A stretch of 64,000 nt of DNA from Squalus acanthias (taxonomy: Eukaryota): contig CM059431.1 of NCBI GenBank assembly GCA_030390025.1, forward strand, positions 148,554,001 through 148,618,000, written 5' to 3'. Both the position numbers and the translations under genes were made by a program. The notes under the pieces were generated by a model. The model did no database searches. It was not told the origin of the DNA and worked only from the letters and a program-made list of their open reading frames with translations. Position 1 is the first letter of the stretch, and the number at the start of each line of letters is the position of its first letter. Shown piece after piece: positions 2,227 through 58,099 of the stretch.

Positions 2227-5099
2227 TCAGTATCCCGTCCCCGCCTTCTCTCCGTAACCCTTAACCCCTTTTGCCTGTAGAAATATATCTAATTCCCTCT
2301 TAAATATATTTAATGAGCTGGCGTACACTGCCCTCTGTGGCAATGAGTTCCACAGGTTCACCACCCTCTGAGTGAAGAAATTCCCCCTCATTTCTGTCCT
2401 AAATGGTTTAGCCCTTATCCTTAAATTATGTCCTCTAGTTCTGTTCTCACCCGCCAAGGGAAACATTCCTTCTGCATCTAGTCTGTCTAGACCTGTCAGA
2501 ATTTTATACACTTCTATGAGGTCCCCTCTCAATCTTCTAAACTCCAGTGTGTACATCCCTAAACTACATAGTCTCTCCTCATAGGTCAATCCCGCCATTC
2601 CTGGTATCAGCCTGGTGAATCGCCGCTGCACCCCCTCCATGGCAAGAACATCTTTCCTCAGATGAGGCGACCAAAACTGTACACAGTACTCGAGGTGTGG
2701 TCTCACCAGTGCCCTGTACAGCTGCAGCAAGGTATCCCTGTTCCTGTATTCCAAACCTTTTGCTATGAAGGCCAGCATACCGTTTGCCTTCTTGACCGCC
2801 TGTTGCACCTGCATGCTCGCCTTCAGTGACTGGTGTACAAGAACACCCAGGTCTCTCTGTACTTCCCCCTCTCCCAATTTATTGCCATTTAAATAATAAT
2901 TTGCCCTCCCGTTCCTGCACCCAAGGTGGATAACTTCGCACTTGTCCACATTATAGTGCATCTGCCATTTATCCGCCCAATCACCCAGTCTGTCCAAATC
3001 GCTCTGGAGCTTCCTGGTCTCCTCCTCTGAGCCCACCCCCCCCCCCCTCCTAGTTTAGTGTCGTCTGCAAATTTGGAAATGCTGCATCCGACTCCCTGAT
3101 CCAGGTCATTAATGTAAATTGTGAACAGCTGGGGACCCAGGACAGATCCCTGCGGTACCCCACTTGTTACTGCCTGCCATTCAGAAAATGAGCCGTTTAT
3201 TCCAACTCTCTGTTTTCTATCTGACAGCCAGTTCTCTATCCACGTCAATACTTTCCCCTTTATCCCATGAGCTTCAATTTTCCCTGCTAATCTTTTATGT
3301 GGGACCTTATCGAAGGCCTTTTGGAAGTCCAGGTACACCACATCTACTGGCTCTCCCCCATCTATTTTACCAGTTACTCCCTCAAAAAATTCCAATAGAT
3401 TAGTCAAGCACGATTTACCCTTTGTAAATCCATGTTGACTCTGTCCTATCCTGTCCCCATTTGCTAAGTGCTCCGCTATTTCATCCTTAATGATGGACTC
3501 CAGCATTTTGCCCACAACTGATGTAAGGCTTACAGGTCTGTAATTACCTGCTTTTTCCCTACCCCCCTTTTTGAATAGTGGGGTAACGTTAGCTACCCTC
3601 CAATCCATGGGCACTGTTCCCGAGTCTAATGAATTCTGAAAAATCATACTTAGTGCATCCGCTATCTCTAGGGCCATCTCCTTCAGCACCCTAGGATGCA
3701 TGTTATCAGGCCCTGGGGATTTGTCCGCCTTCAATCCCTTTAGCTTCCTTAACACCATATCCTTAGAGATATTGATTTGCGTCAGTTCCTCCTTTGCAAA
3801 TGTCCCTATTTTTCCCGATATCCCAGGGAGGTTTTTTGTGTCTTCCTTCGTAAAGACTGACCCAAAGTATGCATTTAGTTGGTCTGCCATTTCCTTATTT
3901 CCCGTTATATATTCCCGCGTATCTGACTGCAATGTGCCAACTTTGGTTTTCACCAGTCTTTTCCTCTTGATATACTTATAAAAGCTTTTGGAGTTAGTTT
4001 TTATATTTTCCGCCAGCTTGCTTTCATAAGCTATTTTGCCCCTCTTGATTAAGCCCTTTGTCCTCCTTTGCTCTATCTTAAACTGTTCCCAATCTTCCGC
4101 TCTGGCGCTTTTTTTGGCTACTTTATACGCCCTATCTTTGGATTTTATGCTGTCTCTAATTTCCCATGTTATCCACGGTTGGTTCACCTTTTTAGATTTC
4201 CTTTTATGCCAGATTGGTATAAACAATTTTTGCAATTTTGTCATTCTATCTTTAAATGCTTGCCATTGCTTATCTACCTCCAGTCCACCCAGGAACGTTG
4301 TCCAATCAGACCTACTCAGTTCCCGTCTAATGGCATCATAATTCCCCTTGTTTAAATTCAGGACCTTCGTATCTGAGTCAATTTCTTCGCTCTCCATTTC
4401 GAGTGAGAAATCGATCATGTTATGATCGCTCTGACCCAAGGGTCCCCGTACAACAAGATTACTAATTAGTCCCTTCTCATTGCACAGTACCCAGTCCAAT
4501 ATAGCCTGTTCCCGAGTTGGTTCCTCGACATATTGATCCAGATAACCATCCCTTAAACACTCAAGGAATTCCTCCTCCTCATTATTTTTACTGATTAGGC
4601 TATTCCAATCTATATGTAAGTTAAAGTCACCTATGATGACAGCTGTGCTCTTATTGCACGCTTCTCTAATTTCCCTCGTGATGCCCTCCCCAACCTCTAT
4701 TTTACTATTTGGAGGCCTATATACCACTCCTATTAATGTTTTTCGCCCCTCGCTATTTCTTAGCTCCACCCATATAGATTCTGTATTAACTGAGTTAATA
4801 TCCTTCCTTTCAATTGCATTTATCCCTTCTTTTACCAGCAATGCTACCCCTCCTCCCTTTCTTTTTTGTCGATCCTTCCTAAATACTGAATACCCCTGTA
4901 TGTTAAGCTCCCAGCCCTGCTCACCCTGCAACCATGTTTCCGTAATCCCAATTAGATCATAATTATTAACCTCTATTTCCACAGCTAATTCATCTACCTT
5001 GTTCCTGATGCTTCTCGCATTAAGGTATAAAACCCTCAGGCTTTTTTTATGCTCACATTTTTTATGAATTAGTTTGGCCCTTTGTTTTTTGTTCCTCAC
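2227..5099 (-). CDS. CR1 ORF2p (APE endonuclease + reverse transcriptase), one frameshift at a C12 run (3036-3047)
   Basis: YLNARS, ETW, GDFN, SDH (endonuclease); [28 protein letters not shown] (RT). C-terminal part in ORF 2227-3036. Confidence 0.92.
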
Positions 5100-5173
5100 C
5101 CTTTTACCATTTATTTCTGTCTGCCTTTCACTTTCCTCTATTTCACTGCATAGGTTTCTAGCCCCCTGCCATA

Positions 5174-6079
5174 CTAGTTTAAATGCTCCCGAACTGCTTT
5201 ATCAAAAATTACCCCGAGAACATCAATTCCATCTTTGCACAGGTGTAGACCGTCCCTTTTGTATAGGTCACACCTACCACAAAACTGGTTCCAATTCCTC
5301 AAAAATTTAAAACCCTCCCTCTTACACCAATGCTCAAGCCACGTATTTAGCCTAACTATCCTCTTCTCTGTACTCTTACTCGCACGTGGCACTGGTAGTA
5401 ATCCAGAGATTACTACCTTCGAGGTCCTACTTTTTAGCTTGGCTCCTAACTCCCTAAATTCTACTTGTAGGACCTCTTCCCTTTTTTTAGCTACGTCGTT
5501 GGTACCAACATGTATCACGACAACTGGCTGTTCCCCCTCCCCCTCCAGAATGTTCTGCACCCGCGCCGAGACATCCTTGACCCTTGCACCAGGGAGGCAA
5601 CATACCATCCTGGAGTCTCGGTCGCGACCACAGAAACCCCTATCTATTCCCCTTACAATCGAATCCCCTATTACGATAGCCCTGCCACTCTTTTTCCCTC
5701 CCTTCTTTGCAACAGGGCCAGTCATGGTGCCATGAGCCTGGCTGCTGGTGCCTTCCCCCGATGAGTCATCCCCCCCGACAACAGCACCTAAGGCGGTGAA
5801 CCTGTTGCTAAGGGAGACAACCCCAGGGGATTTTTGCACTACCTTCCTGCCCTTGCTCTGCCTTTTGGTCACCCATGTACTATCTACGCTGGCCTTAACC
5901 TGCGGTGTGACCAACTCACTAAATGTGTTATCCACAACCCTCTCAGAATCGTGGATGCTCCAAAGTGAGTCCATCCGCAGCTCAAGGGCCGTCATGCGGT
6001 CCCACATGAGCTGCAGCTGGACACACTTCCCGCACACATGGTTGTCAGGGACACAGGAAGCGTCCCTGATTTCCCACAT
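5174..6079 (-). CDS. CR1 ORF1p: N-terminal Cys motif/coiled coil plus SGNH/GDSL esterase domain
   Basis: [39 protein letters not shown] esterase blocks; open for 301 aa. Confidence 0.9.
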
Positions 6080-6107
6080 GTTACAGGAGGATATGATAAT
6101 AGATAAA

Positions 6108-6510
6108 TGTTTTTTTATTCATTTTTCTAATGTGGGTGTCGCTAGCAATGCCAGCATTTGTTGCCCATCCGTAATTGCCCTGGAGAAGGTTGTGGTGCGA
6201 CGCCTTATACAACTGAGTGGCTTACTCGGCCATTTCAGAGGAGCAGTTAATAATCAACCACATTGCTGTGAATTTAGAGGCACATTGCGGCCAGGATGGG
6301 TAAGGACGGCAGATTTCCTTCTCTGAAGGATATTAGTGAACCAGCTGTGTTTTTACGACAATCCGGAAGTTTCATGTTCATCATTACTGACACTAAACTT
6401 TTGTTCCAGATTTGTTTAATTAATCGAATTTAAATTGCACAGCTGTTGGGACTTGAACCCAGGATCATTCATCCATGCATCTGGTTTACGAGTCTAGCAA
6501 CATAACCACT
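6108..6510 (-). mobile_element. tRNA-derived SINE with 3' tail shared with the L2/CR1-group LINE
   Basis: B-box-like GGGTTCAAGTCCC on minus (~6448-6460); body homologous to 62400-62850; tail matches LINE 3' end at ~22310-22420. Confidence 0.7.
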
Positions 6511-6959: not shown

Positions 6960-7675
6960 AGTGGCAGTGGCAACAGTGAGTGGTGCGACTTATGTCAGTA
7001 TTACAGTGTGGGGTGAAACCTTCCAGAGTGTGGCATGTATCAGAGGGCTACAGTGAGGGATGTGAGGAATATCAGTATTACAGTGAGTAGTGTGGGGATA
7101 ATAGTCCAGAGTGTGGCATGTATCAGAGTGTTACAGTGAGGGGTGTGGGCTATATTATAATGATACAGTGAGGGTGGGTTATATTAGAGTATTACATTGA
7201 GGTGTGTGAAGTATATCGGTGTATGTTACAGTGTGGGGTGTGGGCTATATTATAATGATACAGTGAGGGTGTGGGTTATATTAGAGTATTACATTGAGGT
7301 GTGTGAAGTATATCGGTGTATGTTACAGTGTGGGGTGTGGGCTATATAAGAGTGTTACAGTGATTGGTATGGAGTATAGCAGAGTGTGTTACAGTAATGG
7401 AGGTGGAGTATATCAGAGTGTTACAGTGAGTGATGTGGGGTAAATCAGAGTGTTACAGTGAGGGGTGTGGTCTGTTTCAGTGTGTTACAGTGAGGGGTGT
7501 TGTGTTTCTCGGAGTGTTACAGTGAGGGGTGTGGTGTATATCAGAGTATTACAATAAGTGATGCCGGGTAAATCAGAGTGTTACAGTGTGGGGCGTAGGG
7601 TATATCAAAGTCTTAAATTCAGGGGTTTGCGGTATATCAGAGATTTATAGTGTAGGGTGTTGCGTATATCAGAGT
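6960..7675 (+). repeat. 32-bp minisatellite (TGTTACAGTGAGGGGTGTGGGGTATATCAGAG-like)
   Basis: TTACA(G) recurs at 7389, 7421, 7453, 7485, 7517, 7549, 7581; reverse complement array at 58100-59030. Confidence 0.9.
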
Positions 7676-7685
7676 GGCCTCCATG

Positions 7686-8855: not shown

Positions 8856-9415
8856 CTTGGATCCATGTTTTGTTATGGAACCTGTAAGTTATGGCCTCCT
8901 GGTCTCACACCATCAGCTTGTAGCTGATTTGGATACAACCATGTCCACCTTGTCCAGACAGAGACAGGTCTCGGCCTCCGTTAATATATGTTGTTTTTAC
9001 CCTCCCTACAATCTTTCTTTGTTCAATACTTAGTAGAGGCCTTGAAGCTGACGACAAAGTTAGCGGTAAGGAAATCCTAATTTGATGAGCATTATCTTGA
9101 CTTTTAATTGTAATGCCTCTGACAGGGTTTTTAACACTATCCTGAATATTTAAAATCGGTTTCTCTATGGAGAATGTGTCGTGGCCTTTATGATTTAAAA
9201 AGTGTCTCACTCTCCTGAGCCACATCAGCCATTTCATGTTGTGCTGCTGTCGATAACGAAGCATGTTTGAGACTCGTTCGTTCACGCACAAAACCGTATC
9301 CCAATATCATGCCACACGTGACATCGGATCCAAGCCATTCTCGGGTTTTCAGGTGATCTTATCAAAAGATCGTGAGGTGTCTGGAGATCTTTGCTTATCT
9401 CCTTCTGCGTGGTTC

Positions 9416-10586
9416 TGTAAGGGGTATCTTGATGGGGTCAGCCTTGGCTTTCTGACAAAGTGAGCGGTTCCAATAGCTCCAACACCCCTCCTTTTACTAG
9501 ACTTTGGGCTTATTTAGGGGTTGTGAACAAAATTGCAGTAAACAGGTTCTGATGAAAGAATTTGAATTTATTAAAGGAAAAAGGTAACGAACTTGAAACA
9601 CACTTATTACTTAAACGCAGATTCGGGTAACACACGGTACAAGCGAGGGAAATGACAATATATCAAACACAACCTTATCCCTCCCAAACTTCCCACTATC
9701 TGGCAAGGTTTTTGGTTTCAGGAGGTCAGGGATAATGTTCACCAACGAATCCTTGACAGGATATTAGAGTCTTTTGTTTATGTGCGAGGTGTCTGATGGT
9801 CACTGAGACAGTCGCTCTGGTTTATTCTTGCGTGCTGGTTTTATGGCCTTCTTCCTCGTGGCTTGTGGTAAGTTTTGCTGGAGCAGGGACAGAGCCGTAT
9901 CCGCGTCGTCAGTCAGTCCGAAAAAGAGAGAAATTATGGCACAGGCTCTCAAATTATACTGTTTCTTTTTCGCGCCCAAAAACCCGTTACTAAAACGAAT
10001 TCCTTTTTGATTGTAAATGAACCTTGCTTAGTCCAATTGTTTAGTTTTTGTCGTTCTTGCCAGTTCCGATGGTTTTTGCTTAGTGTTAATCGTTTTCCGA
10101 TTTAAAAACACAGCCTTATCTACACGTCAACTCTCCACCCTATTGTCCTTCTGTTGGCGGGCTGTTAAATCTGTTCTGTGGAAACCTGGTTGATTGTTTT
10201 TTTGATGGGATAATGGCTATGAAACTGTGTGATCGAAGTTATATTGTCATTGAATCGTTTTTAGATTTCCAGCATCTTGTTTCCCCTGGGGATCCATATT
10301 TGAATGTGTTTGTGAGTTTTGCTTTGTCTCAAACAATTCCCAGACAGCTTGATCTGTTCACTGACCGGCCACGCCCCTCGCAGCTTGTGCCTGTGAAAAA
10401 GATGTCTCTCTCAACAATAAGATTTAAAAAAAAATCAGTTTCCTCAGTTTTTTCTTCCATGATCTATAGGTTTTTACATCAAATCACTTTACTTAGGCCC
10501 CATCGTCCCAAGTTTGTATGAAAAGTCCAAAAATCACTCCCTTTAGGGATCTGTTCGAGTTTCTGGGGAATTTTGCGAAGCCTACA
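9416..10586 (-). repeat. 3' LTR (1171 bp)
   Basis: TGTAAGGGG...GCCTACA on +; direct repeat of 17192-18387; AATAAA on minus at 9567-9572. Confidence 0.95.
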
Positions 10587-10598
10587 TCCCCCACTTTC
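10587..10598 (-). promoter_or_regulatory. Polypurine tract
   Basis: Minus strand GAAAGTGGGGGA directly abuts the TGTA of the 3' LTR. Confidence 0.85.
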
Positions 10599-10869
10599 AT
10601 ACTAACACTGAATTAGTATCATTAACAGGGGAGCAAAATTACCGATCCCCGAAAAGCAACCTTCCCCTGTATTACATAAACTAAAAACCCAAACATTAAT
10701 TCCCCTTTTGAAAGTGGGGTTTCAGGTACATACAGGTAATAATCAATCTTTATTTCACATCCAAGCACGGAGAGGGTCCGACACCCCTGCACAGCTTGGA
10801 AAAAACACATCATACACATCATAAAAATGAAACAACACACGTACAATTTGTTTTATTAAAAGACAAAAT

Positions 10870-13213
10870 TCAAGGTTTGTTCCATCCCCGGCCATAGCCT
10901 TTATTTTGATGCACTTCCCAAGGACCTTCGTGTCTGCAGCGGAGCTCCTCGTCCCTTCCCCTTCACTTTGTACACAGCAGGTAGAGAACTATCCCGAGCT
11001 GGCAGACCACCAAAAGATGGGAAGCCATCCTCATCCAGGACGGCACCTCTATATTCTCGAAAATATCCCGCCAGTTTTGAACTACTATATCCAAAATCTC
11101 TGCCCCTATTTCAAATGTTTTCTGTTCCAGGTTGTAGAAATGTTTTTGTGAAATCTCTGCAGCTTTAAGTAGGATGTTAAGTAGGGGGAATTTTATATCC
11201 AAAGTAAGTCACATACTATTGCAGGTTTGTAATGTTTTCTGTAACAGTGAGGTGAGGAGTGAAGGTTTCAGGAATGGGGACAATCCGTTCCTGGGCAACT
11301 TGAACTTCTGCCTCGGGTTTAAAGCAGAAACTGCTGTCACTTACCGGACACCAGAAGTGTCCATGCTGGTAGTGGGACGCACCTGTGGTGACACAATATG
11401 TCCCACCCCATATATATGCTACCTGTGGGGAAACATGGCCGTGTGCCATCACCTCCATGGTACAATTGATAGGTCGTGCGCCAGCAGCTTTAAACCCGCA
11501 CTGTGGTTTGGAATAGGCGGTCAAGTGCTGGGGACACAGTATTATGTGTGAACCCCGGCTCCGGCACCCGGAGAGGTCAGTACCTGTCATGCCTTCCTCC
11601 CACTTTATGATATAAGGTGGGACCGCTGTAAAACGGATGTGTGCACCCCCTTGAATTACTCCACTGTTCTCCACCCTGTATACCGGTACGGGTCGGGCTG
11701 TCCCACTCATGACTGGCATTCTCACTACTATCCCCATGACAGTGTGATTTGAACGCCCACAATCTATTGGGACAGGGCAGGCTTCAGAGGCTAGACGAAA
11801 TTGGCATGGACTCAGCGAATTACTAAACGGGTTGAGGGCTGTAAGGTGCTTGTTGCTGATCCAGCAGGGGACTAAACCTTGCTTTAAATCCTCCAGGTTG
11901 CGACGGTCCTCGCCCAGTAACCATGCCCCGTACAGCACACACACCTCATTCTGTGCAGCCTGATCCGATGCATTTCTATCCTCCCGTATGAGTGAATTTA
12001 CTGTTTTGGCATGCCTTTCCAATTCTGCAATAATTTCCTTTAAATGAACCGTCAAAGCTTGGTCCTCATGTAGCTCTGAGCCTACCACTGTGTTCCCATC
12101 CTTCAGGATCTTACTTAACTGGGTTTTTCAACCATTTATCTGTGTCTGTAATTCCATGTCATTCAGGCTATTTATTACAGAGGACCCTGTACTATAGGCA
12201 GTGAAGACATCATTCCAGGCTCCCCTTCTTTGTCTACCCGTGCCCATAGGGTTCTCAGGGTGTATTCTGTATAGCTCTACTTTGTCTATATTGGCAAAAT
12301 CAAATTCGTAAAATTTCCTAAACATTTCCTTCAGCAGGGCCTGGTACAGCTGCTCCGTTTCCTTAGGACACCACACAGGTAAGTATACCTCGGTAAGGTT
12401 TAATATTACTGAAGCTACTGCATAGTGTTCCCCCTGGTATAGTACCTTTTCGTTTGGTGCTAGGACTAACCCATTCCCTGGTCCCTTGGTGGTGGTAGGG
12501 CACTTTTCTTCCAGGGTTTTCGGTACCTGGCTCGTGGGTAGGGGCTTTCGGGTGTGTGCCACGAGTTCAGTGGCATTAACTGGGACCTGAATGTGTGGCA
12601 CCACGCACCCATGCAGGCTAGAATCACACCCTATCCCCTCCCCGGCATCTTGCCATTGGCTGGAGAAGATGATGGATTCCCCTATGGGGCAGGCTTCCTA
12701 TGATCCCCACATACAACCATAGACTCCCTGTTCCGACTCCCACCACTTATCCCAACAAACACTAACTTCTCCTTGGGTCCCTGTGATTGTCCGGTGGGTG
12801 TCGTTCCCTAATCTTTCCCAGTCGGCTGTATGGTACCCTGCGTCCCTGCTCAGCTTCCTGAGCCACCACCACCTAGTCAGGGGAATTCGTCCCTTACAGG
12901 TAAGGCACATACGCTTCCCCTCGGTGACACTGACCCTGGTGGCAACGACCTGCATTCTGGGTCATGGGAGGTAGGCCTCCCCGTACGTGAACCCGGGCTG
13001 GGTGGATTATTTAGTAAAGTTGGACCCCAGCCACCCTGGCCACCTCCCCTCGTGGAAGTAGATGGCGAGCTCCACCACTACCCGCTCGCCACCCCCTGCG
13101 GTGACGACTGGTGCTCTCACTCCTGAGCACCCATAGATGTGAGAGTCCTCCACGTCACCTCGGTAGCCGATGCTCACCCCTACCAGGGCGAAGAGGAGCA
13201 GAAACCTTGTCAT
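10870..13213 (-). pseudogene. env: env: signal peptide, Ig-like domain, furin site, F-type fusion ectodomain, TM anchor
   Basis: ORFs 13007-13249, 12698-12955, 12128-12604 and 11216-12088 share one frame, separated by stops; 10963-11202 is frameshifted. MTRFLLLFALVGVSIG; RQRR|GAWNDVFTAYSTGSSVINSL; heptad region; Cys-rich DLSGC..IILCP, YCVTT, FCF; TM-like HLLVVCQLGIVLYLLC. Confidence 0.85.
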
Positions 13214-13225
13214 CCCGATGTCCTT

Positions 13226-13252
13226 TCTGTAGGGGCACACACAAAACATATA
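13226..13252 (-). promoter_or_regulatory. Probable env splice acceptor
   Basis: Minus strand TTTTGTGTGTGCCCCTACAG| lies 13 nt upstream of the env ATG (13213). Confidence 0.6.
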
Positions 13253-13439
13253 TCCATGTCCCAGAAAGGTTCTCCGGCTGGATAATCAATCAAGCCCTTA
13301 AACTTAAAAAAAACTCTACAAACAACGAAACTAATGATAACTCAAAACCACCAAAACTGCAATTACTTAAAAACCCAAATTTATGTTCATTTGCCGCCCG
13401 TCTCCGGGCGGCCAGGTTAAATCATGTTTGGTCTCTGCC

Positions 13440-14374
13440 TTATGCGGCCTCTGGATGGCTTGTACACCTGGGTGTCGTGCGGCCTGTACCGCAGACCCAG
13501 AAGGCCTTCCTCAAATCCGCTGGGGGTATCTTAACATCCCAGCTGCGTCCTGTGCTGCAGCACACTACCCACTTTGGTGTGTTTGCAGCGCCCTCGTTCA
13601 TATCTGTGGGCTCCTCCCAGCCTGAGGCTGCGGGCGGGGGACCCTTCTCTCTCTCTCCTTCCAGTACTACCTCTCCTGTGAAACCCTCACTGTTGGAGGC
13701 TGTAGGCTGGGAATCACCAACTTTAGAACGCTCCCTGCTCTTGGGCGCCCTTCTTCGGATTGCAACCCTCTTTGGGTGGGACCCTCTTAACAGATACACC
13801 TGTGGCCACAGTAGCCTTTGCTGTGGTGTGCGGGGAGACCTTCTTAGGGCTCTGGCCACTGGGGGTGTGCTTGAGCCCCACATAATCGGTGGAGTGACCT
13901 CTCCTGTGAGACAACACACTGTCCCTCCCGCTCCAGCCTGTGCGTCTGCCACAGTTGTGTCTGGCTGCGGATTTCTAACTTGGGGGCAGTCCACCTTTGC
14001 CGGCTGTTCCCTTTTAGGTTTAAACAGTTTGCACTGGTCAATCTCCCACTCGTGAGTTATCTGGGGTTCTAACAGCAGCCTATCTTTCTGGTGCTGGCTC
14101 CCCAGGTTACTGGCTGCTTGCCAGTGATTCTGTTTAAAAATCTGGTCCTCTGCCCTGAAAGGACCTCCGAGGGACTCCCCTCACTCTCTCTACCAGGCCG
14201 GACTTAAAGACGGGATGCTGGGCTTGGACCTGCTTTAAGTCCGGGGGCTAAGCTACCCCCTGTGTGCCTCCCTTGTCCCGGATTGCAGCTACCGGACCTG
14301 CATTATAGGGATCCCATAACTCTCCTTCACTGGCCCCCTGCTTGGCCAACTTGTCGGCCTTTTGGTTACCCTCC
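13440..14374 (-). pseudogene. pol: pol remnant: RNase H C-terminus, integrase-flanking segments and a Pro/Arg-rich tail; RT and IN cores absent
   Basis: My translation: GNQKADKLAKQGA (14332-14370), DLKQVQAQHP, then HWQAASNLGSQHQK...HEWEIDQCKLF running into ORF 13440-13994. No YxDD or DDE motifs seen. Confidence 0.75.
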
Positions 14375-17116
14375 CACGTGGTATGGAGGGATCCTAAATC
14401 TATGTCCAAAGGTTTGGATATGGCCCCAGCCTGCTTGTTCCCTGTGATTCACATTAAACTGTACGGGACCCCGCTAGACCTGAGTGAATTGGTCAGGTCT
14501 GCCGAATGGACCACCGTGCTGGCGGCTCCGGTGTCCACCAAACATCTCCCCTGCACTTTCTCCACCCCCTTCTTCACATCGTATCCCAGGGGAACACAGG
14601 TAGACAGGCTGCGCTGGTTCCAGTCATAGGTCTGCATTAGGGTGGGGGCTGATGGGATTAATGCACCAGTAGCTACCTTCCCTGGGCCACCAAACAGGAC
14701 TCTGATGGCCGCTACTATTGTGTCCAGTGTGGGGGAAGAGGTCGATGCCTCTACTTTTGGGGCAAAAGCTGGGGAATTTTTTGTCAGCATATCCTTCCAG
14801 GGATTTCTACAGTCCTTTCTCCAGTGCCAACTCTTCCCGCACCCGAAGCAGTTACGCTTCATATCTGAAGGTTTACCACCTTCCTGGTCCCACTCCTTCT
14901 TATCCTGAGTGGGCTTTATCTCATACACCTTCCCTTTCAGTGGGGTGTCTTCAGCTCCCCTACCGTTCCGGTAGGCTAGGGTCAGTTGCCAGACCACTGC
15001 CTCCTCGGTGACCCGGGGATCTCTTGGGTCAAACCAAAGCACAGCCATGGCTTTGACTCGTGGCAAGCTGTTTGCCACTTGGTTACGGAGCCAGTGGGCT
15101 AGCTCGTCCCTGTTCAGGTTAGCCCTGTCGAGAGCCCCATTACAGGCAACCATGTACACCGGCCACAGCCTGTCTGCGAAAGCCTGTGGGATCACCCCTG
15201 CGAGCTGCACTGTTTTTCTCCACCCGGGAGAAAGGACTTCCCTCATTCATTCCCATGGCCTCTAAAACTTCCTCCCTGAGGGAAGCATACCCGTTCTGTC
15301 CTCTCTTGCTCTCATTAGAGAGTGACTGGTACAATTTCCCATCAATGAGAACAGGAGCTATTTTGCCATTTCGGCATCGTCACAATCGTTAATGGCTGCT
15401 GATTGTTCCACCTCCATGAAGTGAACTGCGGGGTCTTCCTTTTGGGTAAGTTTACTCTTGTGGTTTACCATAGCCCTAAGCTCTTGTGTACCGTGGGGAG
15501 CCAAGAATTGACTTTCAAGGGGTCGCTGACCTCCACCACCGGCGGGCGAGCCGAATTTTTGCTGTCGTGCTGGGCACATTGGCCCTGGCTCCGACTTCTC
15601 CTGCATCGGTTCGCCCCCCTCTCCCTGCTGCCAGACCGAGTCAAAACTCGGCGCCACAGGTGCTGGTGTGCACTCCCTGTCAGCCTCACAGATTGTCTGC
15701 ACCTTCTGCTGCCTAAACAAGCTTCTCCTTGGCGCCACAGGTGGTGGTCGAACAGTCTCCCCCTGCTCTACCAGGTCTGCCTGGGCCGCACCCGGGCTTA
15801 TCAGGCACAGCATGCCTTTTGTCTTGATCAGAGCAAGGTTCAGACTCTCAATCTGCTTCTGAGAGGGGCCGTGGTCCCCTACCTCAAACTCCCTTTTACT
15901 GGCTATTCTATAGGCTGCCTGAACATCGTTTAACTTCTCTGTGAGTTCCCTTAATTGCTTGGCAAGGCGGGTGTTCTGTTCCCGCAATGCCAGTTCACTA
16001 CTTTTGGCCCCGGTGGACTGATACTGGAGGTATCCCTTACTGGCACGGTGTTCCTCCAGCATCTGTGACTGTTCCTGATCTTTTGAGCCGAGCTCTGCTA
16101 ACAACCTATCTCCTGCTATAGCTCTGGCACGGGACAGTTGGCTTTCTTTCTTTAGCTCTTCTGTGAGAGCCTGAATACACTTCCCATAAGCTGCATTTGT
16201 TTCTGGGAGCAGACCAACCATATGGCTTTATCCACAGACTTATTGGCCCAGAAATTGATCTCGCTCTGTTCCCGCGGGGGTAAGCCTTCCCCGCGTTGTC
16301 TCACCTCGCTTGTGCTTTTTCAGATCCAGCTCGCACGAACTTGATGTTCCAGACATCAGCTGTGCTGGGCTTGCGTATCCCAGCGGCGTAGTGAATTCGT
16401 GCGAGCTGTGGGATCACGTGACTCAGATGGAGTCAATGGCAGCACACCATCTTCCATTCATAAGTTTCACAGACCTGCTCTGAAATCTATGAATCTTACA
16501 ACCCCCCAAAATAACAGCTAAACCTCAATTAAATTTAAAAAAAAACCATCACATTAATAAAATAAGTATAGTTAATTAAATTAACCATTTTAAATAAAAA
16601 ATTAAATTTTTGAAAAAATTTAAAATCTTTTAAAAAGTTATAAAAATAAACTTACCTGTCTTTAAAGTCTCTAAAAAAGATATACCTGTAAAAAAAAATT
16701 CAAAAAAATACTTAATTCACTACTTACCTTCTTAAAAGCGGGTCTTACTCCTCCTTTTTACATTTCCAAAATCTTCCCTACTTACCTGCGCGTCCAAAGC
16801 ATGAAGTGCACAGCGTGCGCGCAGCCTGTAGCGCGCACGCGATGCACCCAGGACCCGCCCCCTTTTCAGAAGAGCAATTGCCGGTTTTCAGCGCATGCGC
16901 AGGGCATGCAGAAAACCGGCAATTGGAGTGGAAATACGCGAGAGTACGCAGTGCGTACTCTCACTTCCCGGGATGAATTTTCGGCCCATTGTATTCCTTG
17001 CTCTCAGTCCATGCAGCTGCAGCGTCCATGGGACGTTCAGCATGCAACAGCCTGAGGACCCATTTCTGGGTGATATTTACTTTTTTATATACATAGGATG
17101 ACATCCTCTCTTCCAT
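14375..17116 (-). pseudogene. gag: gag-pro: coiled-coil N-region, capsid-like region, CCHC knuckle, PSAP motif, aspartic protease N-half; broken by MITE, stops and frameshifts
   Basis: ORFs 16961-17188, 15358-16221, 15140-15334, 14449-15246. CFGCGKSWHWRKDC (14809-14850), PSAP (14644-14655), CLVDTGA (DTG 14527-14535). Confidence 0.85.
16245..16987. mobile_element. MITE (PIF/Harbinger-like, 3-bp TSD) inserted in gag
   Basis: Imperfect TIRs GGCCCAGAAATT / AATTTTCGGCCC; ATT on both flanks; homologous to 56764-57476. Confidence 0.8.
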
Positions 17117-17170
17117 TTTTGTTCTCTCCTCAAAACCAGCATTTACTGCTTCACAACCCTTTCGCCAAAC

Positions 17171-17187
17171 TCCTGCCACGGTCGCCA
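17171..17187 (-). promoter_or_regulatory. Primer-binding site, tRNA-Arg(UCG)-type
   Basis: Minus strand TGGCGACCGTGGCAGGA, 4 nt after the 5' LTR. Complements the vertebrate tRNA-Arg-TCG 3' end as I recall it (...TCCTGCCGCGGTCG-CCA) with one mismatch. Confidence 0.8.
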
Positions 17188-17191
17188 TTTA

Positions 17192-18387
17192 TGTAAGGGG
17201 TATCTTGATGGGGTCAGCCTTCGCTTTCTGACACAGTGAGCGGTTCGACTCGCTCCAACACCCCTCCGGTTCCTTGACTTTGGGCTTATTTAGGGATTGT
17301 GAACAAAATTGCAGTAAACAGGTTCTGATGAAAGAATTTTACTTTATTAAAGGAATAAGGTAACACACTTGAAACACACTTATTACTGCAGCACAGATTC
17401 GGGGAACACACGGTACAAGCGAGGGAAATGACAATATATCAAACAAAACCTTATCCCTCCCAAAGATCCCACTATCTGGCTAGGTTTTAGGTTTCAGGAG
17501 ATCAGGGATAATGCTCACCAACGAATCCTTGACAGGATATTAGAGTCTTTTGTTTAAAAGGACTCCGTAAGGCCCTTGTTGCTGCGAGGTGTCTGATGGT
17601 CACTGAGGCAGTCACTCTGGTATCTTCTTGTGTGCTTGTCTTCTGGCCTTCTTCCTCGTGGCTTGAGGTAATTTTTGCTGGAGCAGGGAGAGAGCTGTGT
17701 CCACGTCGTCATTCAGTCCGAAAAAGAGAGAAATTATGGCACAGAATCTCAAATTATACTGTTTCTTTTTTGCGCCCAAAAACCCCTTACTAAAACGAAT
17801 TCCTTTTTGATTGTAAATAAACCTTGCTTAGTCCAATTGTCTAGTTTTTGGCGGGCTTGCCAGTTCCGATGGTTTTTGCTTAGTGTTAATCGTTTGGCCC
17901 ATTAAAACACAGCCTTACTTACGCGCCAAATCTCCAACCTATTGTCCTTCTGTTGGCGGGCTTTTAAATCTGTTCTGAGGAAACCTGGTTGATTGTTTTT
18001 TTCGATAGGATAATGGGTATGAAACTGTGTGATCGAAGTTATATTGTCATTGAATCGTTTTTAGATTTCCAGCATCTTGTTTGCCCCTGGGGATCCAAAT
18101 TTGAATGTGTTTGTGAGTTTTGCTTTGACTCAAACAATTCCCAGGCAGCTTGATCTGTTCACTGACCGGCCAAGCCCCTCGCAGCTTGTGTCTGTGAAAA
18201 AAATGTCTCTCCCAACAATCAGAATTTAAAAAAAATCATTTTCCTCAGGTTTTTCTTCCATGATCTATAGGTTTTTACATCAAATCACTTCACTTAGGCC
18301 CCGTCATCTGAAGTTTGTATGAAAAGTCCAAAACTCACTCCCTTTAGGGCTCTGTTCGAGTTTCTGGGGGATTTTGCGAAGCCTACA
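17192..18387 (-). repeat. 5' LTR (1196 bp)
   Basis: Same termini as the 3' LTR; many substitutions and one ~25-bp indel relative to it; followed on minus by the PBS. Confidence 0.95.
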
Positions 18388-18529
18388 GTTCCGATATCTC
18401 GGGTAGGGGCCAGGCTATAAAATTCAGTTTTCTTATTGTTCAGTATAGGCAATGTCATAAACATCTCCAACAGAAAGTCTATCAATTTACGACACTTCCC
18501 TGACTTTCACAATTATTTACATTAATTCG

Positions 18530-29720: not shown

Positions 29721-31217
29721 ATTTTAAAGAGATAGTCTCTCCCTCAGGGACCCCATTTAAAGAGGGAGACTCACCATCAGGAACCCCTTTTAAAGAGAAT
29801 GTTTCAGCATCAGGGACTCATTTTAAAGAGAGAGTCTCACCATTAGGGATCCCATTTAAACAGGGATTGTCACCATCAGGGACCCGTTTTAATGATGGTG
29901 TTTCACCATCAGGGACCCCTTTTAAAGAGGGAATCACACCATCAGGGACCCTTTTAAAGAGAGAGACTGGCCATCAAGGACCCCTTTTAAAGAGGGAGTA
30001 TACCCATCAGGGATCACTTTTCGTGAGAGAGTCTCTCCACCAGGGACCACGTTTAAAGAGGGAGTCTCACCATCGGGGATCCCTTTTAAAGACGGAGTCT
30101 CACCATCACGGATCCCTTTTACAGAGGGAGTTTCAGCATCAGGGAACGCTTTTAAAGAGATAGTTTCTCCATCAGGGAGCCGCCCTTTTAAAGAGTGAGT
30201 CTCACCATCAGGGAACGCTTTTAAAGAGGGAGTCTCACCATCAGGCACACCTATTGAAGAGTGAGTCTCACCATCAGGGACCCTTGTAAAGAGGGAACCT
30301 TACCATCAGGGACGTCTTTTAAAGAGAGATTCTTTCTATCAGGGACCCCTTTTAAAGAGAGTTTCTCCCAATTAGGGAACCCTTTTAAAAAGTGTGTTTC
30401 AGCATCAGGGACACTTTTTAAAGAGGGAATCTCCCCATGAGGGAAGCCTTTTAAAGCGGCTCACCATCAGGGACCCATTTTAAAGAAGGTGTTTCAGCAT
30501 CAGGGATTCCAATTAAAGAGGTTGTCTCACCATCAGGGATCCATTTTAAAGATTGTGTCTCACCATAAGGGAGCATTTTTAAAGAGGGAGTCTCACCATC
30601 AGGGACCCATTTTAAAGAGGGAGTCTCACCATCAGGGACCCTTTTAAAGAGGGAGGCTTACTATCAGGAACACCTTTTAAAGAGAGTTTTCTATCAGGGA
30701 CCAATTTTAAAGATGTAGTCTCATCCTCGGGGACCCATTATAAAGAGAGAGTCTTTCTATCAGGGACACCATTTTATGAGATATTCTCCCCACCAGGGAC
30801 CCCTTTTAAAGAGGGAGTCACATCATCAGGGACCCCTTTTAAGGAGGGTGTTTCAGCATCAGGGAAACTTTTTAAATAGAGTTTCTCCAAAAGTGTACCC
30901 TTTTAAAGACAGAGTCTCACCATCAGAGAGTATTTTAAAGAGACAGTTTTTCTATCAAGTTCCCTTTTTATAGTGGGAGTCTTTTTTATCAGGGACCCCT
31001 TTTAAAGAGAATCTTTCTATCAGGGACATCATTTAAAGAGAGAGTCTCACCATCAGGGACCCCTTTTAAAGAGGGAGTGTCTCCATCAGTGACGCCTTTT
31101 AAAGAGGTTGTTTCAGCATCAGCGTCTCCAATTAAAGAGGGAGTCTCAGCATCAGGGACCCCTTTTAAAGAGAGAGTCTCACCTTCAGGGAACCATTTCA
31201 ACGAGCGTCTCACCGTC

Positions 31218-31437
31218 TGTGACATGAATCTTGTCATTCATGTATGAAATAATACTAGCCGGCCTTCTGGTGGCGCTGTCCAGGGAGAGTATAAATACTA
31301 GGGCATGGGCCCAGCTTGCTTAGGACATTCCTTTACAGGAACCAGTAAAGGATGCAACTAGACCTCCATGTTGAAAAACAGTTGATTAAAGCTTTGTTTA
31401 ACGCTTAGACCAAGTGCCTAGTAGTTTTCATACATCA
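31218..31437 (+). mobile_element. ~220-bp solo-LTR-like insert in the satellite, copy 1
   Basis: TGT...CA ends, TATAAATA, ATTAAA, inner TGTATGAAA/TTTCATACA inverted repeat; GTC on both flanks. Confidence 0.6.
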
Positions 31438-31800
31438 GTCAGTGTCCCCTTTTAAAGAGGTTGTCTCACCATAAGGGACCACATGTAAAGAAGGCATCTC
31501 ATCATCAAGGACCCTTTTTAAAGAGAGTGTCTCACCATCAGGGACACTTTTAAAGAGGGACTATCTCCATGAGGGGCCCGTTTTAAAGAGGGAGTCTACC
31601 CATCAGGTACCCCTTTTAATGAGAGAGTCTCTCTATCAGGGACCACTTTTAAAGAGGGAGCCTCACTGTCAGTGATCCCTTTTTCAGAGGGAGTTACAGA
31701 ATCAGGGACCGCTTTTAAAGAGATAGTCTCACCATCAGGGACCCCTTTTAAAGAGAGAGTCTCACCTTCAGGGAACCATTTCAACGAGCGTCTCACCGTC

Positions 31801-32020
31801 TGTGACATGAATCTTGTCATTCATGTATGAAATAATACTAGCCGGCCTTCTGGTGGCGCTGTCCAGGGAGAGTATAATTACTAGGGCATGGGCCCAGATT
31901 GCTTAGGACATTCCTTTACAGGAACCAGGAAAGGATGCAACTAGACCTCCATGTTGAAAAACAGTTGATTAAAGCTTTGTTTAACGCTTAGACCAAGTGC
32001 CGAGTAGTTTTCATACATCA
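31801..32020 (+). mobile_element. Solo-LTR-like insert, copy 2
   Basis: Near-identical to copy 1, same flanks. Confidence 0.6.
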
Positions 32021-33845
32021 GTCAGTGTCCCCTTTTAAAGAGGGTGTCTCACCATAAGGGACCACATGTAAAGAAGGCATCTCATCATCAAGGACCCTTT
32101 TTAAAGAGAGTGTCTCACCATCAGGGACACTTTTAAAGAGGGACTATCTCCATGAGGGGCCCGTTTTAAAGAGGGAGTATACCCATCAGGTACCCCTTTT
32201 AATGAGAGAGTCTCTCTATCAGGGACCACTTTTAAAGAGGGAGCCTCACTGTCAGTGATCCCTTTTTCAGAGGGAGTTACAGAATCAGGGACCGCTTTTA
32301 AAGAGATAGTCTCACCATCAGGGACCGCTTTTAAAGAGGTTGTCTCAACATCAGAGACACCTTTTAAACAGGGGATCTTAACATCAGGGACCCCTTTTAA
32401 AGAGGGAGTTTCACCATTAGGGACCACTTTTAAAGAGAGAGTCTTTCTATCAGGGACTTCTTTTAAGGAGCGAGTCTCACACTCGTGGACACATTTTAAC
32501 GGGAGAGTCTTTCTATCAGGGACCCCTTTTAAAGAGAATGTCTCCCCATTAGGGACCCCTGTTAAAGAGGCTCATCATCAGGAAACCCTTTTAAAGAGAG
32601 TGTTTCAGCATCAGGGACACTTTTTAAAGGGGGAGACTTTCTCTCAGGGATCCATTTCAAAGAGAGAGTCTCCCATTTGGGACACCTTTTAAAGGGGTTC
32701 ACCATCAGGGACCCCTTTTAAAGAGGGTCTTTTAGCATCAGGCACCGATTTTAAAGAGAGAGTCTCACCATCAGGTATCACTTTTAAAGAGGGAGTCTCA
32801 CCATCAGCGACTCCTTTTAAAGAGGGTGATTCAGCATCAGGGACCGCTTTTTAAGAGAGGCTCTCCATCAGGGACACCTTTTAAAGAGTGACTCGCCATG
32901 GGACCCATTTTAAAGAGAGTGTCTCACCATCAGAAACACCTTTGAAAGAGAGAATCCGACCAACAGGGGCCCATTTTTAAGAGGGAATCTCCCCATCAGG
33001 GACCCCTTTTAAAGAGGCTAACCATCAGGGACCCCTTTGAAAACGGTTGTTTCAGCATCAGGGACTCTTTTTAAAGAGGGAGTCTTTCTATCAGAGATCC
33101 CTTTTAAAGAGAGAGTCTCACCATCAGGGATTCCTTTTAAAGAGGGAGTCTCACCATCAGGGATCCTTTTTAAAGAATGTGTCTTAGCATCAGGGATCGC
33201 TTTTAAAGAGACAGTCTCATCATAAGGGACCCGGTTTTAAAGAGGGAGTCTCACCATCAGCGACCGCTTTTAAAGACGGAGTCTCACCAACAGGGATACC
33301 TTTTAAAGAGGGAGTCTCTCCCTCGGGGAAACAATTTAAAGATAGAGTCTTTCTATCAGGTACACCTTTTAATGAGAGAGACTCTCCACCAGGGACACTT
33401 TTAAAGAGGGAGTCTCACCATCAGGGACCACTTTTAAAGAGGGAGTCACATCATCAGGGACACCTTTTAAGGAGGGTGTTTCAGCATCAGGGACACTTTT
33501 TAAATAGAGTTTCTCCATCAGCGTACCCTTTTAAAGACAGAGTCTCACCATCAGGGAGTATTTTAAAGAGACAGTTTTTCTATCAAGTTCCCTTTTTATA
33601 GTGGGAGTCTTTTTTATCAGGGACCCCTTTTAAAGAGAATCTTTCTATCAGGGACATCATTTAAAGAGAGAGTCTCACCATCAGGGACCACTTTTAAAGA
33701 GGGAGTGTCTCCATCAGTGACGCCTTTTAAAGAGGGTGTTTCAGCATCAGCGACTCCAATTAAAGAGGGAGTCTCAGCATCAGGGACCCCTTTTGAAGAG
33801 GGAGTCTCACCTTCAGGGAACCATTTCAACGAGCGTCTCACCGTC

Positions 33846-34063
33846 TGTGACATGAATCTTGTCATTCATGTATGAAATAATACTAGCCGGCCTTCTGGTG
33901 GCGCTGTCCAGGGAGAGTATAAATACTAGGGCATGGGCCCAGCTTGCTTAGGACATTCCTTTACAGGAACCAGTAAAGGATGCAACTAGACCTCCATGTT
34001 GAAAACAGTTGATTAAAGCTTTGTTATAGCTTAGACCAAGTGCCTAGTAGTTTTCATACATCA
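33846..34063 (+). mobile_element. Solo-LTR-like insert, copy 3
   Basis: Near-identical to copy 1, same flanks. Confidence 0.6.
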
Positions 34064-37000
34064 GTCAGTGTCCCCTTTTAAAGAGGTTGTCTCACCATAA
34101 GGGACCACATGTAAAGAAGGCATCTCATCATCAAGGACCCTTTTTAAAGAGAGTGTCTCACCATCAGGGACACTTTTAAAGAGGGACTATCTCCATGAGG
34201 GGCCCGTTTTAAAGAGGGAGTATACCCATCAGGTACCCCTTTTAATGAGAGAGTCTCTCTATCAGGGACCACTTTTAAAGAGGGAGCCTCACTGTCAGTG
34301 ATCCCTTTTTCAGAGGGAGTTACAGAATCAGGGACCGCTTTTAAAGAGATAGTCTCACCATCAGGGACCGCTTTTAAAGAGGGTGTCTCAACTTCAGGGA
34401 TACCTTTTAAACAGGGGATCTTAACATCAGGGACCCCTTTTAAAGAGGGAGTTTCACCATCAGGGACCACTTTTAAAGAGAGAGTCTTTCTATCAGGGAC
34501 TTCTTTTAAGGAGGGAGTCTCACACTCGTGGACACATTTTAACGAGAGAGTCTTTCTATCAGGGACCCCTTTGAAAGAGAATGTCTCCCCATTAGGGACC
34601 CCTGTTAAAGAGGCTCATCATCAGGACACCCTTTTAAAGAGAGTGTTTCAGCATCAGGGACACTTTTTAAAGGGGGAGACTTTCTCTCAGGGATCCATTT
34701 CAAAGAGAGAGTCTCCCATTTGGGACACCTTTTAAAGGGGTTCACCATCAGGGACCCCTTTTAAAGAGGGTCTTTTAGCATCAGGCACCGATTTTAAAGA
34801 GAGAGCCTCACCATCAGGTATCACTTTTAAAGAGGGAGTCTCACCATCAGCGACCCCTTTTAAAGAGGGTGATTCAGCATCAGGGACCGCTTTTTAAGAG
34901 AGGCTCTCCATCAGGGACACCTTTTAAAGAGTGGCTCGCCATGAGGGACCCATTTTAAAGAGGGTGTCTCACCATCAGAAACACCTTTTAAAGAGAGAAT
35001 CTGACCAACAGGGGCCCATTTTTTAAGAGGGAATCTCCCCATCAGGGACCCCTTCTAAAGAGGCTAACCATCAGGGACCCCTTTGAAAACGGTTGTTTCA
35101 GCATCAGGGACTCTTTTTAAAGAGGGAGTCTTTCTATCAGAGATCCCTTTTAAAGAGAGAGTCTCACCATCAGGGATTCCTTTTAAAGAGGGAGTCTCAC
35201 CATCAGGGATCCTTTTTAAAGAATGAGTCTTAGCATCAGGGATCGCTTTTAAAGAGACAGTCTCATCATAAGGGACCCGGTTTTAAAGAGGGAGTCTCAC
35301 CATCAGCGACCGCTTTTAAAGACGGAGTCTCACCAACAGGGATACCTTTTAAAGAGGGAGTCTCTCCCTCGGGGAAACAATTTAAAGATAGAGTCTTTCT
35401 ATCAGGTACACCTTTTAATGAGAGAGACTCTCCACCAGGGACACTTTTAAAGAGGGAGTCTCACCATCAGGGACCACTTTTAAAGAGGGAGTCTCACCAT
35501 CACGGGTCATTTTAAAGAGAGAGTCTTACACTCATGGAGTCCTTTTAAAGAGAGAATCTCACCATCAGGGGTCCCTTTTAAAGAGTGAGTATCCCGGTCA
35601 GGGACCACTTTTAAAGAGGGAGTCTCACCATCACGGGTCATTTTTAAAGAGAGAGTCTTGCACTCAGGGAGTCCTTTTAAAGAGGGAGTCTCACCATCAG
35701 AGACCCTTTTAAACAGGTGGTCTTTCTATCAGGGAGCCCTTTTAAAGAGTGAGACTCACCCTGGCGCACCCATTTTAAAGAGAGAGTCTTTCTATCCTGG
35801 ACCCCCTTTAAAGATTGAGTCTTTCCATCAGGGAGATCTTTTAAAGAGAATCTTCCGATTAGGGATACCTTTTAAAGAGAGTGTCTCACCATCGGGGTGC
35901 CCTTTTCAAGAGGGTGTGTCTCTATGAGGAACACCTTTTAAAGAGGCTGTTTCCCCATCAGGGATTCCTTTTAAAGAGAGAGTCTCACCATCAGAGAACA
36001 TTTTAAAGAGAGAGTTTTTCTATCAAGGTCCCTTTTTAAAGTGGGTGTCTTTTTATCAGGGACCGCTTTTAAAGAGAATCTTTCCATCAGGGACACCATT
36101 TAAAGAGAGACTCACCATCAGGAACCCTTTTAAAGACGGGATATTTCTGTCAGGGAGCCCTTTTAATGAGTGAGTCTCAACATCACGGGTCACTTTTAAA
36201 GAGAGAGTCTCACACTCAGGGACCCCTTTTAAAGAGTGTGTCTCACCATCAGGGATCACTTTTAAAGAGGTGGTCTTTCTATCAGGGAGCCCTTTTAAAG
36301 AGTGAGACTCACTTTGGGCTCCAATTTTAAAGAGAGAGTCTTTCTATCAAGGGCCCCTTTTAAAGAGAATCTTCCGATTAGGGACACCTTTTAAAGAGAA
36401 TGTCTCACCATCAGGGTGCCCTTTTCAAGAAGGTGTGTCTCTATTAGGAACACCTTTTAAAGAGGGTTATTCCCCATCAGGGACCCCTTTTAAAGAGAGA
36501 CTCTCACCATCAGGGGTCCCTTTTAAAGAGTGAGTATCCCGGTCAGGGACCACTGTTAATGAGAGAATATCTCCACCAGGGACCCTTTAAAAGAGGGAGT
36601 TTCAGCATCAGAGACCGGTTTTAAAAAGAGAGTCTCACCATCAGGGACCCATTTTAAAGCGGGTGTCTCACCATCAGGGACACCTTTTAAAGAGAGAGTC
36701 TCACCATCAGGGACAACATTTAAAGAGGGAGTATACCCATCAGGGACCCATTTTAACGAGAGTCTCACCGTTTGGGTACCCTTTTAAAGATGGTTTCTCA
36801 CCATCAGGGTCCCCTTTTAAAGTGGGAGTCTCCCCATCAGGGACCCCATTTAACGAGAGTCTCACAGTCGGTGGCCTCTTTAAAAGAGGGAGTCTCACCA
36901 TCATGGACCTCTTTTAAAGAGGGAGTCTCACCATCAGGGACACCTTTTAAAGAGAGAGTCTCACCATCAGGAACCCCTTTTAAAGAGAGGAACTCGCCAT

Positions 37001-57799: not shown

Positions 57800-58070
57800 C
57801 CCTGAGCGCCACACGCTGTTCCTGGCCCTGAGCTCGCCTCGCGGTTCCTGGCCCCGAGTTCGCCTCTGGTCTCTGGCCCCGAGCTCGCCACGCGATTCCT
57901 GGCCCCGAGCTCGCCTCGCGATCCCTGGCCCCGAGCTCCACACACTATTTCTGGCCCCGAGCTCGACTCGCTGTTCCTGGCCCCGAGCTCGCCTCTGGTC
58001 TCTGGCCCCGAGCTCCACTCGCGAAGCCTGTTCCCGAGATAGCCTTGCGATTCCTGGCCACACCACTCGG
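57800..58070 (+). repeat. GC-rich ~26-29-bp repeat (CTGGCCCCGAGCTC core)
   Basis: About 9 units by direct reading. Confidence 0.85.
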
Positions 58071-58099
58071 TGTCGTACTCTGTTATGCACCACATGCCT

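Follow-up and report, generated by a model that had tools for sequence, protein, structure and literature searches.

A pol-deleted shark provirus with a predicted F-type envelope and a probable place deep in Retroviridae

The DNA analysed here is a 64,000-nucleotide stretch of the Squalus acanthias genome (the window; GCA_030390025.1, contig CM059431.1, positions 148,554,001 to 148,618,000), which carries on its reverse strand a provirus with a long envelope gene. We read this provirus, with a probability of about 0.8, as a non-autonomous and now dead copy, with gag and env and a deleted pol, of a multicopy shark endogenous retrovirus (ERV) family that forms a deep, class III-grade branch of Retroviridae, similar to snakehead retrovirus (SnRV) and the clade 'Huo', and not a lokiretrovirus (Loki). 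The exact tie to SnRV is looser, as monophyly of the two is neither shown nor rejected. Relatives of the family were found in sharks and a skate, and also in frogs and coelacanth, the closest named ones being Heptranchias (91% in integrase, IN), Pristiophorus (78% in Env) and Rhinoraja (61-72%). Indirectly, these relatives indicate a host that is very probably a cartilaginous fish, and probably a shark, in agreement with the original prediction.

Reverse transcriptase, RNase H and integrase

The original prediction had assigned the provirus to a loki-like lineage and proposed placing full-length relatives in a tree of reverse transcriptase (RT) and IN. Three of the 20 copies that we fetched from the genome have a full pol, in the order protease, RT, tether, RNase H (RH) and IN. 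Their RT falls outside both Gypsy and the epsilonretroviruses, and in three trees it lies inside Retroviridae, apart from Loki (100/100, 100/99 and, in a 40-row tree that recovered Loki as the sister of Retroviridae, 99/97). A group of gamma, epsilon, beta and delta RTs excludes the shark family (99/96). These trees used 20 of 49 viral RT loci, with Gypsy reduced from 44 to 22, 10 or 7 rows. The three Loki references (L061-L063) came from a motif search, agree with published rows and match PF00523; the SnRV reference is a sequence of 10,688 nucleotides (L064), the RT of which agrees with the published row. With SnRV the family RT shares 45% identity, with Loki 35% and with frog and further relatives 51-55%, and a forced RT clade with SnRV was not rejected in the approximately unbiased (AU) test (p=0.32).

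The RT motifs point the same way. The shark family has LPQGFHNSP and GYCRDF, and LPQGF is retroviral, whereas PFG or Y/F-PFG-like variants stand at that place in every one of the 24 published Loki RT rows. The Loki motifs (PFG in motif B; NYSR, NFSQ or NYLR near the thumb) are absent from the family, and the Loki RT motif pattern, which does find Loki elsewhere, gave 0 matches in this genome. The original screen (PMC7947760) gives Loki in 0 of 6 chondrichthyan genomes. With the RT being non-Loki, the loki-like assignment is not upheld, and the proposed extension of the Loki range to sharks does not follow. Nor does the family belong to Metaviridae, where the RT would lie within Gypsy and the RH would be single; here the RT is outside Gypsy and the RH is dual. 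No related loci were found in the viral contigs.

Several features of the trees weigh against this placement. Forcing the shark family and Loki into one RT clade costs 24 log-likelihood units at an AU p of 0.044, which is a marginal rejection. The family RT sits at the retrovirus base with SnRV, foamy virus, frog and coelacanth rows, and the branching order there is undecided. SnRV never pairs with the shark family in the best RT trees, as it joins gamma and epsilon in the 100/99 tree and stands alone in the 40-row tree, and it is also placed away from the family in the IN and RH trees. ERV-L, alpharetroviruses, lentiviruses, Odin and CmiERV are not represented among the rows of the RT trees, and the searches brought no sequences of fish foamy-like ERVs.

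The IN and RH trees, for which 15 of the 49 viral loci were used, give a different picture from RT. Low scores removed one beta row from the IN tree, and delta, Gypsy and one beta row from the RH tree. The family IN is 44-45% identical to Loki versus 38% to SnRV. In the best IN tree, which has no CGIN1 row, the family joins Loki at 39/72 and the named retroviruses, including SnRV, group without it (94/91), although a forced IN clade with SnRV was not rejected (AU p=0.096). The database name 'NYNRIN-like' on IN relatives is an automatic annotation. The family RH groups with Loki and foamy viruses (93/96 over 158 columns), with SnRV outside; within that group Loki pairs with foamy (94/88), a pairing for which the tool flagged long branches, and the shark family falls outside it. 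Gag could be aligned with SnRV Gag or Loki Gag only at the CCHC knuckle. Taken together, RH, IN and Env stand nearer to Loki than to SnRV, and the support for this is weak or moderate.

The leaning of RH and IN, the dual RH and the Env profile match to Loki described below would all suit a true lokiretrovirus, the first in a cartilaginous fish. The tether and RH are common to all retroviruses, however, and therefore a dual RH is not diagnostic of Loki. The position of RT in three trees and its motifs speak against a lokiretrovirus, as do a Gag with a CCHC knuckle and a Loki Env that has a hydrophobic fusion peptide and no N-terminal extension. We regard this explanation as very improbable.

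An old recombinant, with retroviral gag, protease, RT and tether joined to an RH-IN-env block from a lokiretrovirus, would account for three 3' modules that lean to Loki and an RT that does not; pol/env recombination is described as common in anamniote ERVs (10.1101/2021.11.23.469661). The pairing of Loki with foamy viruses in the RH tree is at odds with such a transfer, and the family IN is at best sister to Loki, not nested within it. These comparisons had 2-3 teleost-type Loki rows only. SnRV Env is also homologous to the family Env, and therefore retention needs no transfer. A recombinant origin thus seems improbable, though less so than a true lokiretrovirus. A pol/env chimera, its Env taken from outside the SnRV group, was considered early on; this idea lost ground when SnRV Env proved alignable.

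Returning to a deep retroviral branch, we give somewhat less than even odds to a broader account in which the family and its frog and coelacanth relatives are slow-evolving basal Retroviridae that combine an ancestral Loki-type RH and IN and a compact F-type Env with a retroviral RT and a captured immunoglobulin (Ig) V domain as receptor-binding module. With the Env of SnRV, epsilon and foamy viruses F-like as well, the common ancestor of Loki and retroviruses would then have had an F-type envelope, and the gamma- and beta-type SU-TM envelopes would be later replacements or reductions.

The predicted envelope fold and its Ig V-like domain

The env of the window is broken, so that we used as reference a natural uninterrupted copy (L010), which encodes 784 residues from the matching start. 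A sequence search with it found 47 homologues; the named ones among the 20 looked up are from sharks, frogs and coelacanth, and skate matches came from other searches. A model built from a 42-row alignment has a core with pLDDT values (a predicted form of the local distance difference test) mostly of 70-96. A single-sequence AlphaFold model reached a pLDDT of 32 and was not used. In a Foldseek search with the alignment-based model, the best PDB match was human parainfluenza virus 3 F (E 6e-10), and the 35 rows listed were paramyxo- or pneumovirus F without exception. VIA-align gave a Z of 12.2 to Newcastle disease virus F (root-mean-square deviation, rmsd, 15.2; 334 residues aligned), 9.0 to human metapneumovirus F (rmsd 5.8; 282 aligned) and 8.4-8.5 to foamy Env (at Z 8.4, rmsd 5.6; 277 aligned). 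Viral models matched by the Env model include lispivirus glycoproteins, baculovirus F and the Env of walleye epidermal hyperplasia virus (WEHV) and walleye dermal sarcoma virus (WDSV). On the model, the Env core is a paramyxo/pneumovirus F-type fold, as in measles-type viruses.

These matches bear out the F-type envelope, as distinct from a gamma-type SU-TM, that had been predicted from the DNA. Its RQRR site, heptad region, Cys-rich region and C-terminal transmembrane (TM) segment were likewise present as described. The CX6CC motif said to be missing was not found in the natural uninterrupted copy. An F fold, the outcome expected of a fold check, was obtained; PF00523 itself matches Loki Env and gave no match to the shark Env. 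The segment after the cleavage site, which had been called weakly hydrophobic, has a mean Kyte-Doolittle value of -0.15 over 24 residues, versus 1.60 in Loki Env, which bears that description out. This polar peptide recurs across the homologues and in SnRV, and therefore the membrane-inserting segment may lie further in.

Kinship with Loki Env, also predicted, is seen at the profile level (probability 98.3%, E 1.5e-14, 352 columns). The match begins where Loki Env begins, and therefore the Ig region is an addition in the shark Env. A hidden Markov model of the Env family scored Loki Env at 64.2 bits and SnRV Env at 12.9 bits, with the best reported shuffle at 2.1. The SnRV Env core aligns over 331 columns, in which the cysteines and the cleavage site correspond, at an hhalign probability of only 27% (E 6.7e-4). 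Pairwise BLASTP reached E values of only 0.013 for SnRV Env and 0.042 for Loki Env, so the homology to both rests on profiles. The premise that an F-type Env marks Loki was wrong, because foamy Env is F-like (a class Ib fusogen according to PMC11468914, which puts orthoretrovirus Env in a separate class Ia), models of WDSV and WEHV Env match the same fold, and SnRV Env aligns weakly. A PDB sequence search with the Env profile returned no F protein and only weak Ig matches (best E 0.004). ESM Atlas gave two leads, a chordate cluster at 0.85 and a cluster at 0.75 with Baculo_F on 19% of its members.

In front of the F-type core, model residues 89-182 resemble an Ig V domain, with VIA-align Z values of 5.2-6.1 to TREM-1, T-cell receptor and antibody V domains. 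The best of these, TREM-1 (Z 6.1, rmsd 3.1, 90 aligned), is a middling match, the pLDDT of the region is only 49-70, and Pfam Ig_3 is matched weakly (E 0.011-0.057). The N-terminus of SnRV Env (L064:6176-6490) has weak top matches of its own (E 0.05-0.06), to Ig domains in perlecan and contactin. Two results on Env tell against our reading: a PDB sequence search with the Ig region gave nothing significant, nor did one with P0084, and the Env model has whole-chain TM-scores of about 0.3, with a mean pLDDT of 62.8 and a pTM of 0.46.

One frog relative of the pol has a gene model that joins it to an Ig segment, and this segment shares 48% identity with the beginning of an Env homologue (E 4e-33). 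This one fused gene model indirectly suggests that the pol group is tied to this Env outside sharks as well. In frogs and bamboo shark, uninterrupted Env homologues of 677-739 residues carry annotations as uncharacterized genes of the host (P0095, P0073, P0065). The cluster in Mantella aurantiaca (P0095) has 16 members, which suggests a young family; single-member homologues among annotated host genes could be domesticated.

Copies of the family and the provirus in the window

Searches of the 3.7-Gb genome gave 2398 first-look candidates for env, of which 40 were scored and lay at 96-100% identity, and 2598 for RT, again with 40 scored; these totals are not copy numbers. Exact LTR-PBS junctions (long terminal repeat and primer-binding site) numbered 52, versus 0 for the control. 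Besides the three full-length copies, 12 of the 20 fetched carry the same pol deletion as the window and five have other deletions, namely four members of a second pol-less subfamily and one copy that retains little beyond LTR and env. A single stop comes after gag in all three full-length copies; in two, gag and pol share a frame with one stop between them, and the third is frameshifted just upstream. Exact 4-bp target-site duplications were found in at least three copies. Eleven of 14 LTR pairs tried gave a Kimura two-parameter distance (K2P) of 0.012-0.034, two had no second LTR in the stretch, and the last (0.073) belongs to an inverted copy of the window's insertion, 98.5% identical and 1.65 Mb away (C7:150.21-150.22 Mb; L031, L127). 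Because the flanks are identical and an insertion in gag, a miniature inverted-repeat transposable element (MITE), is shared, this inverted copy is a segmental duplication and not a second integration. In the second pol-less subfamily (L033, L037, L046, L048), the LTR differs and gag is separated from env by about 1 kb that did not align.

Among the top 30 env matches, eight are uninterrupted over 740 codons. Pairwise dN/dS of env was 0.36-0.52 by dS bin, uncorrected for transition bias. The divergence by codon position among eight pol-deleted copies was 0.0126, 0.0095 and 0.0216, highest at the third position; deleted copies showed the third-position excess in env as well as gag, and it was absent between the window and its duplicate. 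These comparisons favor an Env that would have been in use while the family spread. The same signal fits both selection in cis and inheritance through recombination, and two points count against use: singleton changes (73, 74 and 99 by codon position) show only a mild third-position excess, and the test relied on non-independent pairs, the top 30 matches only and one neutral control pair.

Env could instead have been a passenger in pol-deleted copies that moved by intracellular retrotransposition, its selection signal inherited through recombination with a helper. The mild singleton excess would agree with this, and exchange is indicated by a window env far closer to the full-length copies (95%) than the protease remnant is (77%) and by a second deleted subfamily with gag at 72-77% and env at 92-94%. 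On the other hand, env is kept in 17 of 17 deleted copies fetched, although copies were selected by env, and the repeated capture of fresh env by two subfamilies suggests that env was useful. We consider a passenger Env unlikely, though clearly less so than either Loki origin.

For a family with a working Env, we propose the following course. Gag-Pol would be made by readthrough of the gag stop, as in readthrough retroviruses, and Env would be cleaved by furin at RQRR and refold in the manner of F proteins, with the Ig domain as a putative receptor-binding module. The pol deletion probably arose once. Since the deleted genomes have no pol, they must have used helper RT and IN, and their RNA would have been copied in trans; the difference between env and protease identity implies recombination in which the deleted and the helper lineage exchanged env. 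The window insertion would then have decayed, gained its MITE and been duplicated with its flanks.

The proviral features are collected in Table 1. The complete cis-architecture that had been predicted was recovered: an LTR pair, the GTTC duplication, a polypurine tract, and a PBS with 17 of its 18 positions (one G-U) paired to the 3' end and CCA of host tRNA-Arg(TCG), at a 4-nucleotide spacing from the 5' LTR. The pol deletion, the MITE in the 5' region of gag and the Ig V-like domain had gone unreported. Pol measures 0.34 kb versus 3.36 kb in full-length copies, with about 3 kb missing; the protease is fused to the end of RH and this to the IN C-terminus, so the RT and the IN core are gone. 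In-frame stops interrupt env at four codons (69, 84, 172 and 362), in addition to which it has a frameshift near 11215 and one more stop directly after the TM segment. Pfam searches with the window's own ORF pieces gave nothing significant, and an Rfam search gave no match.

Table 1. Features of the provirus in the window, in window coordinates
Feature	Position	Strand	Basis
Provirus	9416..18387	-	LTR pair, target-site duplication, PBS and polypurine tract all found
Target-site duplication GTTC, left copy	9412..9415		sequence
3' LTR, 1171 bp, TG...CA	9416..10586	-	LTR alignment
Polypurine tract adjoining 3' LTR	10587..10598	-	equal position in other copies of the family
env, predicted F-type (class Ib) fusogen, broken	10870..13213	-	translation, model, profile and fold matches
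Env TM segment (approximate)	10972..11031	-	translation; helix 728-764 in model
RQRR furin-type site, then weakly hydrophobic N-terminus and heptad helices	12224..12235	-	translation, model
Ig V-like domain, N-terminal part of Env; candidate receptor-binding module	12665..12946	-	model, weak Pfam Ig_3
Remnant of IN C-terminus and pol 3' tail	13440..14180	-	comparison with full-length copies
RH C-terminal remnant (GNxxADxLAK motif), deletion-fused to protease	14200..14373	-	translation, copy comparison
Protease remnant (DTGA), 77% identical to full-length copies	14374..14620	-	copy comparison
gag (approximate bounds), broken by stops and MITE	14640..17100	-	translation, copy comparison
One CCHC knuckle in gag	14809..14850	-	gag also with N-terminal coiled-coil-like stretch
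Secondary 743-bp MITE-like insertion, imperfect terminal inverted repeats, ATT duplication	16245..16987		copy comparison
PBS, tRNA-Arg(TCG)	17170..17187	-	pairing with host tRNA
5' LTR, 1196 bp, TG...CA	17192..18387	-	LTR alignment
Target-site duplication GTTC, right copy	18388..18391		sequence

The two LTRs are 92.8% identical (1088 matches, 84 mismatches, K2P 0.075), which makes the pair 2-6 times more diverged than those of 11 other copies, with 53 transversions versus 31 transitions. This excess and the high divergence mean that conversion or recombination may inflate the age of the copy. Rates of 2.2e-9 and 2.2e-10, from PMC7947760 and PMC4422223, respectively, put the insertion at about 17 to about 170 million years, and the transversion excess makes even this span doubtful.

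The window copy and its segmental duplicate are the only ones of the 20 fetched that carry the MITE at this place in gag. Related elements of the 743-bp family, with a 3-bp duplication, lie at 56765-57465 of the window and in or beside ERV copies L021, L032, L038, L046, L116 and L118; we take the family to be PIF/Harbinger-like. No host gene was found in the window. A long interspersed nuclear element with a GDSL-esterase ORF1 and an endonuclease-RT ORF2, presumably of CR1/L2 type, occupies 2227-6118 of the reverse strand, with related copies near 24.7-25.6, 39.1-41.5, 44.4-48.0 and 51.8-55.7 kb. Long minisatellite arrays of 33-bp and 32-bp units lie at 29722-38912 (with higher-order repeats), 41751-44082, 60801-61766, 7121-7676 and 58058-59031. 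Elsewhere, tRNA-Arg(TCG) and tRNA-Ser share a 1.62-kb tandem unit, with an intron-length gene, in large arrays at 39-42 Mb of C26, with 424 pattern matches genome-wide.

Implications and comparison with known systems

SnRV-like shark ERVs are already known; the additions here are the candidate Ig-like domain and the apparent leaning of RH, IN and Env to Loki. We found no publication on an F-type or Ig-bearing Env in SnRV-like ERVs in a search that did not extend to most subscription papers, Repbase or the original SnRV paper, and the supplements of 10.1101/2021.11.23.469661 may list them. The locus itself is a dead copy. Its lineage, with an Ig-like domain and Loki-leaning RH, IN and Env, is a candidate link in the descent of retroviral Env, for the origin of which PMC7947760 leaves four scenarios unseparated; the account of an F-type common ancestor, if true, would pick between them. 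It would also contradict the class Ia rule for orthoretrovirus Env; PMC11468914 treats this Env as unrelated to F. A lineage in which a retroviral RT goes with an Env alignable in sequence to Loki Env as well as SnRV Env connects these groups and suggests that F-type envelopes are ancient in retroviruses; an ancestral F-type Env is testable by phylogeny. Screens baited with gamma- or beta-type Env miss such elements. Uninterrupted natural Env frames exist in sharks and frogs, and therefore the structure can be solved.

An arginine tRNA primer is a hallmark of SnRV, and SnRV resembles the family in its Arg-type PBS (starting TGGCGA in SnRV), its in-frame gag-stop-pol, its coiled-coil Gag with one CCHC knuckle and the closest named RT. 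The two Env cores can be aligned, and the SnRV Env N-terminus has weak Ig-like matches of its own. Unlike SnRV, the family shows no 3' accessory ORF, and its Env is 784 residues long versus about 1100. The SnRV-like ERVs published from elephant shark (clade Huo; CmiERV lineage I; PMC4422223) are likened to the family here by their description. Loki shares a homologous F-type Env with an RxxR site, tether and RH, an RH of the Loki/foamy group, a similar IN and also the gag-stop-pol layout. The family differs from Loki in about 230 extra N-terminal Env residues with the Ig-like domain, in a polar post-cleavage peptide and in the CCHC knuckle of Gag.

Foamy Env and paramyxo/pneumovirus F have an equal predicted core fold at about 10-15% identity to the family Env. 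Unlike foamy Env, the family Env has one TM segment and a signal peptide, and its candidate binding module is N-terminal and Ig-like, whereas that of foamy Env is inserted. Paramyxoviruses have a separate attachment protein, in the role of which we propose the N-terminal Ig domain of the family. A precedent is RBD-C of gammaretroviruses, a receptor-binding domain with a modified IgV fold (10.1101/2024.03.17.585361); it too is N-terminal in Env and is likened by fold, but it is carried on a gamma-type SU-TM, whereas that of the family would sit on an F-type core.

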